Below are positions 84-2,110 of a DNA stretch of 64,000 bases, one piece after another; the stretch's first letter is position 1; each line of letters starts with the position of its first letter. This DNA comes from an uncultured Alphaproteobacteria bacterium (lineage in GTDB: Bacteria > Pseudomonadota > Alphaproteobacteria > JAGOMX01): contig CAWAEF010000031.1 in assembly GCA_963780985.1 (NCBI GenBank), forward strand, positions 17,286-81,285, given 5' to 3'. Under the pieces are notes generated by a model. That model saw only the letters and a program-made list of their open reading frames with translations. It ran no database searches and had not been told where the DNA came from. A program made the position numbers and the translations under genes.

Positions 84-150
84 TGTCGCGTTTCGCTATT
101 TTCATGCCCGCGTTTTCGCTATTCTGATGTCCGCGTTTCCGCTATTGCTT
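84..150. repeat. three tandem direct repeats of about 21-23 bp
   Basis: Read directly: gtcgcgtttcgctattttcat / gcccgcgttttcgctattctgat / gtccgcgtttccgctattgcttc. The array spans the stop codon of the LRR gene. Confidence 0.6.
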
Positions 151-2110
151 CGTGCGAAACCCTTGTTATCTTGCGCTCCTGCAAGAAATTCGTCAGGTCG
201 ACTGCTATACCAGTAACGATACGTCTCACATAATCCATCAAAAACTTGTTTCCACCTATAATGCGGCAACCGGCCTTTTTTAGGTTGGCGTACCAACTTA
301 TAAATGACCTAATCTCTGCGTCGTCATAGTGACGCAGTGCTATGGACAACCACTCACGAATATCCAAATAGACCAGTTTAGTCAGCAGCGTAATGCAAGG
401 TGAAACACCATTTCGAACACAGCCCGGCATTCGCAAGCTTTGTAGATTCAGGAGACGGCCTATCTCGTCTGGAACCTCATGGGTATTATCGTCATAACTA
501 CCTAATTTATTATCAGACAAATCGATATCAGTGAGGTTCGTCATGGTGCAGATATTGGTGGGAAATGTTGTGAACAAATTTTCTGCCAAATACAGACTGG
601 TTATGGACTTAAGATAAACCATCTCCGTAGGCACCTCCTCTAGCTCGTTGTTACTCAAGTCCAACGTTCCCCAGAGTTTGGTGAGTCTGCCAATCCCTGC
701 TGGCAGGGCTCTGAGCCGGTTGCCTTGAAGCGCCAAGGCCTTTAGATTAGTAAAGCTTCCCAAAGCTTCTGGAAGAAAATCAATACTATTGTGGTCTAGT
801 AAAAGCTTTTCTAGTTGGGTCAGGGACCAGAATTCTACAGGAAAAGCGGTGAGCCTGTTAAAGCTAAGATCAAGTTCTCGCAGCTGCGATAATTGACTTA
901 TTGACGGCGAAACAGTCCTTAGTCTTGCTTTAATGGTGACTGACCTAAGATTTGTGAAAAGCCTACTTTCGAATGATACATGTGAGAGAGGGAGTTTATC
1001 ATCTTGCTTAATAAAGATTTCTTCAGCAGCTGTGCCCATTTTACGCATTTTGATTAGCTGTCTATGGTATTGCATGTCGTAGATTTTGTGTAACGTGAGA
1101 GCTTGCATAATACTTTTTTCATTACGCATATAAAAATCGAAATCTCTACCTGCATCAGCTAAAAACTCATTAAGTCTTTCTAAATTACCCGTTAAAGTAG
1201 GGTTCTTTCTTGTTGGCAGATATATTCCTCCAATTAATGATAATACTCTAGGGTGTCTATTCTTAAATGTACACTTTTGACCCACGCATGCGCTTGTACA
1301 CAAAGGACTACTCTCGATCAGGCCATATGCTTCAACAAATTTTATTTTACCCTTCATAGTGTGCAGATCAAATTCATCAGCCAATTTATCCTTAGGGAAA
1401 ATCTTTGCGCACCATTCAGAATCCACTGCATTTTTAACCAAATAGATGAATCTATGGCTTACGAGAGGCCCATAGACAGGGTGTACATAGGCCATATTAG
1501 ATACAGCCTTGAACAATCTGCATACCTGCGGAAACTTCAATTGATCGAGGAATCTGGTCCTTTCAAAAACCAGCCATAATACATCCCTGGGTAGATCGTA
1601 TATATGGGTATGCATTAAGGGTACTAGAGATTTCTCAGCCCGTTTTAATCTATCCTTAGCCTGTTTTAATCCATCGATAGTGCTGCAGATATGTACGTTG
1701 GCATGCAGTAGATTAGGTGTTCGCACCCTTTTCTGTCCACCGGCTGCTCTTACATTTTTCTCAGCTGCTTGATCGCTCAATAACTGAGCTTGTAGCTCCT
1801 CGAGCTCAGCTTTGAGCGCCTCACTTCTCGCAGATAATTCTCGCCTAGCCGCCGCGCGCAAGAGGAGTTGATTTCCGCCATCGTCAGCCTTGGGCTGATT
1901 TGTTTCCTTTACAAAGGGTATGAATACGAATGAATCACGCAATAGTTGAGCTTGGAGTATCTCCTCGCCCTCACTTAATTTTTGCTGATCTGCTGCACTA
2001 AGAAGGACCAGCTTTCCATCATCTTCAGGCAGGTGCTGATTTGTTGCCAGTGCTTGGGATGCGAATGATGCAAAGAATACAAAGGTTAGAGCTAATCGTA
2101 ATGTGCGCAT
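119..2110 (-). CDS. secreted F-box-like / leucine-rich-repeat protein (eukaryote-like effector candidate)
   Basis: The ORF runs 119-2143. An internal ATG at 2110 gives a signal-peptide-like MRTLRLALTFVFFASFASQALA. An F-box-like stretch LPRDVLWLVFERTRFLDQLKFPQVCRLFKAV lies at about 1496-1597. LRR units follow: LRELDLSFNRLTAFP, LEKLLLDHNSIDFLP, LKALALQGNRLRALP, LDLSNNELEEVP, LTDIDLSDNKL. Confidence 0.8.
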   Translation of the reverse strand: MRTLRLALTFVFFASFASQALATNQHLPEDDGKLVLLSAADQQKLSEGEEILQAQLLRDSFVFIPFVKETNQPKADDGGNQLLLRAAARRELSARSEALKAELEELQAQLLSDQAAEKNVRAAGGQKRVRTPNLLHANVHICSTIDGLKQAKDRLKRAEKSLVPLMHTHIYDLPRDVLWLVFERTRFLDQLKFPQVCRLFKAVSNMAYVHPVYGPLVSHRFIYLVKNAVDSEWCAKIFPKDKLADEFDLHTMKGKIKFVEAYGLIESSPLCTSACVGQKCTFKNRHPRVLSLIGGIYLPTRKNPTLTGNLERLNEFLADAGRDFDFYMRNEKSIMQALTLHKIYDMQYHRQLIKMRKMGTAAEEIFIKQDDKLPLSHVSFESRLFTNLRSVTIKARLRTVSPSISQLSQLRELDLSFNRLTAFPVEFWSLTQLEKLLLDHNSIDFLPEALGSFTNLKALALQGNRLRALPAGIGRLTKLWGTLDLSNNELEEVPTEMVYLKSITSLYLAENLFTTFPTNICTMTNLTDIDLSDNKLGSYDDNTHEVPDEIGRLLNLQSLRMPGCVRNGVSPCITLLTKLVYLDIREWLSIALRHYDDAEIRSFISWYANLKKAGCRIIGGNKFLMDYVRRIVTGIAVDLTNFLQERKITRVSHEAIAETRTSE

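Follow-up and report, generated by a model that had tools for sequence, protein, structure and literature searches.

How would a bacterial protein that starts with a Sec-type signal peptide come to act as a ubiquitin-ligase adaptor in the cytosol of a eukaryotic host? The question is raised by a gene in a 64,000-nucleotide (nt) stretch of DNA (hereafter the window) from an uncultured Alphaproteobacteria bacterium (assembly GCA_963780985.1, contig CAWAEF010000031.1, positions 17,286 to 81,285), which encodes a protein with an F-box followed by leucine-rich repeats (LRRs). We hold with moderate confidence, on the strength of its domains, that this protein is a secreted mimic of the substrate adaptor of a eukaryotic SCF (Skp1-Cul1-F-box) ubiquitin ligase, and would hijack the ligase of the host. 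The order of its parts, F-box then LRRs with a Sec-type signal ahead, had been proposed in an original prediction made from the sequence of the window, and was borne out by Pfam, by matches in the Protein Data Bank (PDB) and by reading of the sequence.

Domain composition of the F-box–LRR protein

The gene is an intact open reading frame (ORF) with a stop codon at 119-121 and an ATG at 2110, encoding 663 amino acids (aa). An alternative in-frame GTG is located at 2143, and both orthologues use the Met equivalent to the ATG at 2110. The identical 663-aa protein is recorded in NCBI, ENA and Logan assemblies and lies on a 163-kb contig. The repeat, the F-box, the LRRs and the signal are all beyond chance expectation. 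Pseudogene status or eukaryotic contamination was ruled out by an ORF that is intact in three lineages, a ratio of nonsynonymous to synonymous divergence (dN/dS) below 1, and the bacterial synteny BolA-X-CorC. Features of the window are collected in Table 1.

In an exhaustive profile search of 1.84 billion representative proteins, the family numbered only three members: P0002 and P0172, which are 61-64 % and 38 % identical to the window protein, and that protein itself. A scan of GTDB species representatives gave no relatives of the F-box–LRR protein, the sole return from JGI metagenome contigs was an unrelated ROCO-type LRR-GTPase, and a word-indexed search with the three-member N-terminal alignment gave no returns.

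Table 1. Positions of features in the window, beginning with the F-box–LRR gene
Feature	Coordinates	Strand	Evidence
Complete coding sequence, 663 aa + stop: signal peptide, helical region, F-box, spacer, LRRs, C-terminal domain	119..2110	-	ORF list, identical records, orthologue alignments
Sec-type (signal peptidase I, SPase I) signal peptide, aa 1-22, predicted cleavage between ALA and TNQ	2045..2110	-	Sequence reading, conservation
Helical coiled-coil-like N-terminal region, aa 23-165, internal repeat	1616..2044	-	Repeat score, AlphaFold2 (AF2) helices (low confidence)
F-box, aa 170-210 (IYDLPRDVLWLVFERTRFLDQLKFPQVCRLFKAVSN)	1481..1603	-	Pfam PF00646, hhalign, reference hidden Markov model (HMM), conservation
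Conserved post-F-box segment, aa 211-265 (HPxxGxLxxHRFIY...ADEFxLHT)	1316..1480	-	Kept in 3/3 members; family match none
Hypervariable linker, aa 266-360, indels between alleles	1031..1315	-	Alignments, dS/dN
LRR domain, aa 385-583, ~8-9 repeats, mostly 23 residues, predicted SHOC2/LRRD1/Leptospira-LIC type	362..958	-	Pfam, PDB matches, register
Helical C-terminal domain, aa 584-663, conserved W..Y..L...GC motif	122..361	-	Alignments
23-nt tandem array, 2.7 copies, across stop codon	87..146	.	Tandem Repeats Finder (TRF) + sequence
Orphan protein with Sec-type signal	2498..2974	+	
679-aa orphan protein	3165..5204	-	
TLC ATP/ADP translocase	11930..13474	+	Pfam, 593 bits
7-nt (AGAATCC) array, 12.6 copies, intergenic	18821..18908		
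Ribosomal protein S2	20479..21708	-	
48-nt tandem repeat, 5.8 copies	20525..20802		
Split gene (adjacent/overlapping ORFs)	21863..22545	-	
Split gene (adjacent/overlapping ORFs)	22579..23917	-	
Orphan protein with Sec-type signal	41303..42208	+	
Split gene (adjacent/overlapping ORFs)	42646..45374	-	
Orphan protein with Sec-type signal	45854..48016	-	
102-nt tandem repeat, 3.1 copies	52967..53281		
119-aa Ser/Pro-rich signal-peptide ORF	53051..53410		
Orphan protein with Sec-type signal	56209..57060	-	
24/48-nt tandem array	56229..56447		
Terminase large subunit (Terminase_6N/6C)	57596..58888	+	
Orphan protein with Sec-type signal	58971..59336	+	
Orphan protein with Sec-type signal	59543..60703	+	

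The F-box-like string given in the original prediction occupies aa 173-203. The F-box was detected by Pfam PF00646 at aa 171-206 with 21.3 bits (E 2.5e-4), and at the homologous columns the three members scored 21.3, 20.5 and 28.2 bits against a gathering score of 20.5. A significant F-box match was therefore obtained by the profile check that had been proposed for it. When the F-box alignment of the family was compared by hhalign with eight canonical eukaryotic F-boxes, a match of 95.5 % (E 1.3e-8) was found over 37 gapless columns, in the same register as Skp2. Three of these references (Skp2, FBXL3 and P0174) were checked from search output, and the other five of the eight were beta-TrCP1, FBXW7, Cdc4, TIR1 and cyclin F. 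An HMM built from only the eight references placed the three members at ranks 1-3 (E 1e-5, 1.5e-3 and 0.04) among 3,982 six-frame ORFs taken from all sequences gathered in this analysis. The family N-terminal profile, run against the 1.84 billion proteins, also retrieved P0174 (E 1.7e-4), a bona fide plant-type double F-box protein (Pfam F-box 43 bits).

Conservation points to the same segment. No other part of the protein is conserved as well as the F-box (83 % and 54 % identity, against 28 % and 24 % for the linker), the F-box dN/dS of 0.24 is the lowest of all domains, and LP, D-V-L and V-C-R-x-F are invariant in the family. Mutation of the LP dipeptide abolishes the binding of Skp1 by AnkB and by eukaryotic F-box proteins, which thus require it (PMC2790608). 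Three helices were predicted at aa 175-209 by AF2, at low confidence. The best PDB match to the F-box profile was the F-box of FBXL3, in register, at an E value of 1.1 which is not significant. The Pfam match alone is marginal; five further tests are convincing, and by sequence comparison the F-box is judged to be genuine and of eukaryotic type.

The N-terminus consists of MRTLRLALTFVFFASFASQALA followed by TNQ. Its n-region holds two Arg, its hydrophobic core spans about 13 residues (maximum Kyte-Doolittle value 2.2 over 10 residues), and A-L-A occupies -3/-1. By sequence and hydropathy reading, the tripartite organization of Sec/SPase I signals was found in all three members. A lipoprotein signal and a twin-arginine translocation (Tat) signal were excluded, as neither a lipobox Cys nor a twin-arginine motif was present. 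The signal peptide is conserved in P0002. P0172 was annotated from an internal Met, and its ORF in contig L004 begins 25 codons upstream, giving MHISRVIFSILFFVSFVSTSFA followed by SRD; this signal differs in sequence yet is equivalent in kind, among members only 38 % identical. That a Sec-type signal is kept in three of three members despite diverged signal sequences argues for export as a putatively selected property.

Behind the signal, aa 23-165 are rich in Ala, Leu, Glu and Gln and 80 % identical between the window protein and P0002, and long helices were given by AF2 secondary structure at low confidence. Within this region aa 31-56 recur as aa 79-104, with LQAQLL after each copy; the local score of 45 was reached by three of 2000 shuffles, and the two coiled-coil-like repeats noticed earlier are thus real though modest.

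The LRRs were matched by LRR_8 (E 9.7e-20, 70.5 bits), which the original prediction had named as a check, and by LRR_14 (E 2e-18), LRR_4 and LRR_1. PDB matches of aa ~385-590 were to LRRD1, SHOC2 and Leptospira LIC proteins, down to E 1e-51. In-register units with the pattern LxxLxLxxNxLxxLPxxI and a period of 23 begin at aa 410, 433, 456, 482, 503 and 526, with degenerate caps at 387, 556 and 579, and LRR_6 gave 16.1 bits on the LRR region, below its gathering score of 23.4. FBXL and GALA proteins are defined by the cysteine-containing (CC) subfamily, with 24-26 residues, Cys/Asn/Thr at position 3 and an ITD-like motif (PMC2244805). From pattern and matches, the repeats of the window protein are assigned to the SHOC2/LRRD1/Leptospira type and not to the cysteine-containing FBXL/GALA type.

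NCBIfam models of type III LRR effectors (XopAC, XopAE, XopL, SspH2/NEL), of Leptospira LIC_11051 and of internalins were also compared. Their whole-protein cut-offs were not reached (78 vs 450, 70 vs 600, 55 vs 500, 15 vs 1243, 77 vs 1000 and 34 vs 1600 bits), and all of these matches were confined to the LRR region.

Between the F-box and the first LRR lie 175 residues (aa 211-384), which comprise a conserved 55-aa segment and the hypervariable linker. Pfam and PDB searches gave no match to the conserved segment despite its presence in all three members, and Pfam gave no family match to the C-terminal domain. The terminal IAETRT is common to the two close members and absent from the third. 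A 23-nt tandem array lies at this end of the gene, and its first copy encodes the C-terminal IAETRTSE and the stop codon, its period not being a multiple of 3. Two copies of the unit occur at the same place beside the P0002 gene (contig L002, ~11940-11985), and every unit holds GCGGAAACGC, a possible small GNRA-loop hairpin. Scans for promoters, terminators and repeats around the gene gave nothing above shuffles.

Bacterial effectors with F-box and LRRs are already known in Ralstonia (GALA/RipG; PMC2244805, PMC13243912) and Neochlamydia (NEX1a; PMC4209131), and these are closer precedents than Legionella AnkB and LegU1, which had been put forward earlier. The GALA/RipG proteins of Ralstonia solanacearum likewise have an N-terminal F-box and C-terminal LRRs, and have been proposed or shown to join the host SCF through Skp1 while their LRRs bind the substrate (PMC2244805, PMC13243912). 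Their LRRs, however, are 24-residue and cysteine-containing, whereas those of the window protein are of the 23-residue SHOC2/typical type, and GALA proteins have a type III signal and lack the Sec signal, the coiled-coil leader and the 175-aa spacer. No homology to GALA outside the generic domains was found in the exhaustive search. NEX1a, of an obligate intracellular protist symbiont, has the same order of F-box and LRRs and was read as SCF-hijacking (PMC4209131), but NEX1 is an expanded family of 138 members with functional type III signals (PMC4209131), while the window gene is single-copy, syntenic, alphaproteobacterial and provided with a Sec signal. The exhaustive search with the N-terminal profile returned three true relatives and no chlamydial or NEX1 proteins.

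The eukaryotic FBXL proteins Skp2 and FBXL3 share the order F-box then LRR, and their F-boxes align without gaps; their LRRs are cysteine-containing, of 26 residues and placed directly after the F-box, unlike the window protein with its other LRR subtype, 175-aa insert, signal peptide and coiled-coil leader. AnkB, LegU1 and the F-box ankyrin-repeat (Ank) proteins of Orientia are bacterial F-box proteins which bind host Skp1/Cul1, with LP essential (PMC2790608; a passage of PMC11895443), but their substrate module is made of ankyrin repeats or other domains instead of LRRs, and they leave by Dot/Icm, a type IVB secretion system (T4BSS), or by a type I secretion system (T1SS) without a cleavable Sec signal. 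Salmonella GogB, also counted among the known bacterial effectors with F-box and LRRs, was reported, in a passage of PMC3386239, to interact with human FBXO22 and Skp1 and to target the host SCF ligase. Rickettsia RARP-1 and the Brucella and Rickettsia substrates of type IVA secretion systems (T4ASS) are eukaryotic-type repeat proteins with a Sec signal, made by intracellular alphaproteobacteria, and their secretion was reported or predicted (PMC8023194, PMC12981334). Instead of an F-box they carry ankyrin or other domains, and the likeness is limited to the logic of export.

By this comparison the window protein is classed as an analogue of FBXL and GALA and not as a member of these families. 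Since the F-box is paired with LRRs of a non-CC type, the sequence suggests that the two were fused independently and that no host FBXL gene was captured. Of the earlier view of an FBXL mimic, the domain order stands, and an SCF-adaptor mimic is the best reading; the LRR subtype and the 175-aa spacer depart from it.

Two divergent alleles in a near-identical background

The contig that encodes P0002 (L002) is syntenic with the window in the genes for a DEAD helicase, a 679-aa coiled-coil protein, orf130, BolA, the F-box–LRR protein and CorC. The neighbour proteins are 100 % identical and the flanks have 99-100 % nucleotide identity over ~20 kb, whereas the two F-box–LRR alleles have 64 % protein identity. 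Window 119..2110 was compared with L002 10001..11965, and the flanks were compared as contig L001 1..12784 against L002 6652..19389. Nucleotide identity in the gene is 63-87 %, falling from 86 % at the 5' end to 63 % at the 3' end, and a 286-nt core which corresponds to the linker could not be aligned by blastn. Beyond the gene the divergence fades gradually, with identities of 94 % in the adjoining end of BolA and 89-95 % in that of CorC.

Synonymous divergence (dS) is 0.12 in the signal region and climbs to about 0.85-1.2 across the post-F-box segment, the linker, the LRRs and the C-terminus. The dN/dS by domain is 0.24-0.62, the linker having a dS of 1.22 and a dN/dS of 0.62. In the LRRs it is 0.08 at scaffold positions and 0.33 at the x positions of the concave face, which thus evolves ~4 times faster. 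Simple positive selection as the cause of the divergence was rejected, for dS is raised as much as the nonsynonymous divergence (dN). Mobile-element borders around the gene were not found in repeat scans.

It might be supposed that alleles of 64 % identity are a chimera of metagenome assembly or a collapsed paralogue, as all sequences come from metagenome assemblies and three split genes in the window might themselves be assembly or indel errors. We consider this highly improbable, because each allele is present as identical sequence in two independent assemblies: that of the window in the NCBI assembly and in Logan contig L001, the other in ENA contig L002 and in Logan contig L003 (100 % over 4858 nt). 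Identity also decays gradually into BolA and CorC with no sharp break, and both ORFs are intact with dN/dS below 1. The locus thus holds two old, functional alleles in a near-clonal background, both under purifying selection. The pair is in keeping with import by homologous recombination, the donor being a diverged relative, or with balancing selection acting on a gene of host interaction.

Genomic setting and carrier

TLC-type ATP/ADP translocases are a hallmark of energy-parasitic intracellular bacteria, and a gene of this type was identified in the window (Table 1). By synteny with L002, a MazEF pair (PemK/MazE toxin-antitoxin) lies just upstream of it. Three genes are split: aconitase into 688 + 221 aa (a single 894-aa protein in relatives), uracil phosphoribosyltransferase (UPRTase) into 158 + 69 aa, and a major facilitator superfamily (MFS) transporter into three pieces. 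Genome reduction may have left them as pseudogenes, or else the assembly has indel errors here. In addition, at least six orphan proteins with Sec-type signals and without a Pfam family are encoded in the window, and these are candidates for further secreted host-interaction factors. Because of the translocase, the MazEF pair, the split genes and the orphan Sec-signal proteins, the carrier is probably an obligate intracellular, host-dependent alphaproteobacterium. The window looks like ordinary chromosome. Its aconitase has relatives with 82-87 % identity in metagenome-assembled genomes (MAGs) named 'Alphaproteobacteria bacterium', and the best GTDB identity among the matches listed is 68 %.

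A sister genome, GCA_041738135.1, whose aconitase is 87 % identical, holds two related architectures on contig JBGSQK010000051.1 (L085). One gene (7462..9126, minus strand) encodes 554 aa, among which are a Sec signal, a stretch resembling an F-box (FPPDINEFILGLVDD...VNRNLRAW) that Pfam missed, and cysteine-containing LRRs as in FBXL proteins (LRR_6, 48 bits). Another, at 18284..19402 on the plus strand, is a 372-aa protein with a signal-like N-terminus and an F-box near threshold (18.4 bits); the position of its gene is empty in the window. A signal peptide combined with an F-box may be a theme of this lineage.

Other observations in the window are as follows. One of the orphan Sec-signal proteins has 720 aa, and another has GGDKGAAA-type low-complexity repeats encoded by the 24/48-nt array. 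The 679-aa orphan, two genes from the F-box–LRR gene and 100 % identical between the strains, has a Sec signal (MYRILSAVVFVLFACAPQTQA followed by SG) and a long coiled-coil C-terminal half with repeated AQLKAAMAEQKSQMD blocks, and no Pfam family was found above threshold. Ribosomal protein S2 has a C-terminal extension of ~170 aa rich in Ala, Lys and Glu, built from the 48-nt repeat. The terminase large subunit stands alone, other phage genes not being seen among the ORFs scanned nearby, and may be a remnant of a gene-transfer agent or prophage. The 102-nt repeat lies in or beside the 119-aa Ser/Pro-rich ORF, and the AGAATCC array is upstream of an amino-acid-kinase-family gene.

Proposed mode of action and alternatives

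In the proposed mode of action, the signal peptide, conserved in all three members, would direct the protein to the Sec translocon and be cleaved after ALA22. The protein would then leave the periplasm by a type II secretion system (T2SS), a TolC-type route, a type IV secretion system (T4SS) acting on a periplasmic intermediate, or outer-membrane vesicles. As its domain identity implies, the F-box with its invariant Leu-Pro would bind host Skp1 and join the Cul1-Rbx1 ligase, and the LRR solenoid would bring one or more host proteins for SCF-dependent ubiquitination. As a speculation, the helix directly upstream of the F-box may dimerise the adaptor.

If a bacterium lies free in the cytoplasm of its host, a protein that crosses the outer membrane by any of these routes is delivered to the host cytosol. 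Cleavable signal peptides are predicted in 22 % of the Brucella and 31 % of the Rickettsia T4ASS substrates (PMC12981334), and secretion of Rickettsia RARP-1 by a Sec-TolC route has been reported (PMC8023194). The question asked in the original prediction, how a protein with a Sec signal would reach the cytosol, is less paradoxical in the light of these precedents.

Several results weigh against a secreted SCF-adaptor mimic. With 21.3 and 20.5 bits, two members only just reach the PF00646 gathering score of 20.5, and PF12937 (F-box-like), the second F-box profile suggested earlier, gave 13.7 bits against a gathering score of 24.3 and stayed under that score in all three. The Trp of the F-box 'CKxW' motif is replaced by Phe in the family, and profile searches of the PDB with the N-terminal region and with the F-box alone gave no significant F-box match. 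AF2 models were unusable because the family is so shallow (predicted local distance difference test, pLDDT, 41.2 for the full length with a 2-sequence alignment and 39.8 for aa 125-392 with 3 sequences), and with three members only the conservation statistics are thin. Secretion apparatus genes were not seen within the 64-kb window, and LRR proteins of bacteria, when they have a signal peptide, are often located at the surface. Taxonomic placement by aconitase reaches Alphaproteobacteria only.

The protein might instead stay in the periplasm or at the bacterial surface, as an LRR protein resembling the adhesins or internalin-like proteins of Leptospira; its LRRs would then bind a ligand external to the cell, and its F-box-like helices would be a structural module only and never meet Skp1. 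The classical Sec signal, LRRs that are closest to secreted Leptospira LIC proteins and SHOC2-type repeats, the marginal F-box scores, the lack of visible translocation machinery in the window and weak NCBIfam matches to the fibronectin-binding protein LIC_11051 and internalin all agree with this. The last two matches, however, at 77 vs 1000 and 34 vs 1600 bits, stay far under the cut-offs of these models and do not extend beyond the LRRs, and no anchoring module was found among lipobox, beta-barrel, LPXTG and C-terminal transmembrane segment. The F-box is the most conserved segment (dN/dS 0.24) with an invariant LP, it is backed by four independent profile tests, and F-boxes have, to our knowledge, no partner in bacteria. 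A surface protein is unlikely on this balance. The same hijacking of SCF could also be reached in one step, if the hydrophobic N-terminus were a membrane anchor or marked an inner-membrane intermediate of a T4SS or T1SS substrate, possibly ending in a host membrane. Signal peptides or transmembrane segments are predicted in about one third of alphaproteobacterial T4ASS substrates, and two transmembrane segments are present in LegU1, itself an F-box effector (PMC12981334); the Orientia F-box Ank proteins use T1SS, as a passage of PMC4315096 states. The C-terminal IAETRT, kept between the two alleles in a region only 63 % identical at the nucleotide level, would agree with such a substrate, but it is missing from the third member. 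The short h-region (~12-14 residues) and the small -3/-1 residues in three of three members are typical of cleaved signals, and genes of T4SS or T1SS were not seen in the window, so that we find the one-step route quite improbable. An SCF-adaptor mimic exported through Sec is the reading retained here.

Molecular mimicry has a classic example in the bacterial F-box proteins, and the characterised ones are injected by type III, IV or I systems. While the concept of an F-box–LRR effector is itself established, what is new here is an F-box behind a conserved, predicted cleavable Sec signal and joined to LRRs of a non-FBXL type, and the presence of strongly divergent alleles in near-identical strains. 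If the protein reaches the host cytosol, it would be a test case for Sec-dependent delivery of ubiquitin-ligase mimics by endosymbionts. Tentatively, and as a possibility with the odds against it, the lineage may use two-step, Sec-dependent export as its standard for SCF-hijacking F-box adaptors, because the signal is present in three of three members and at least two signal-peptide/F-box-like proteins occur in the sister genome; as part of the same reading the locus would be an ancient balanced polymorphism, because alleles with dS ~1 lie in a background that is 99-100 % identical. If so, this polymorphism would be what an arms race over host targets leaves behind at a gene for a ubiquitin-ligase mimic. 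Given its allelic divergence, the gene is likely one that determines host interaction or host range, and a natural experiment is at hand in two alleles whose F-box is the same while their linker and LRR surfaces differ.

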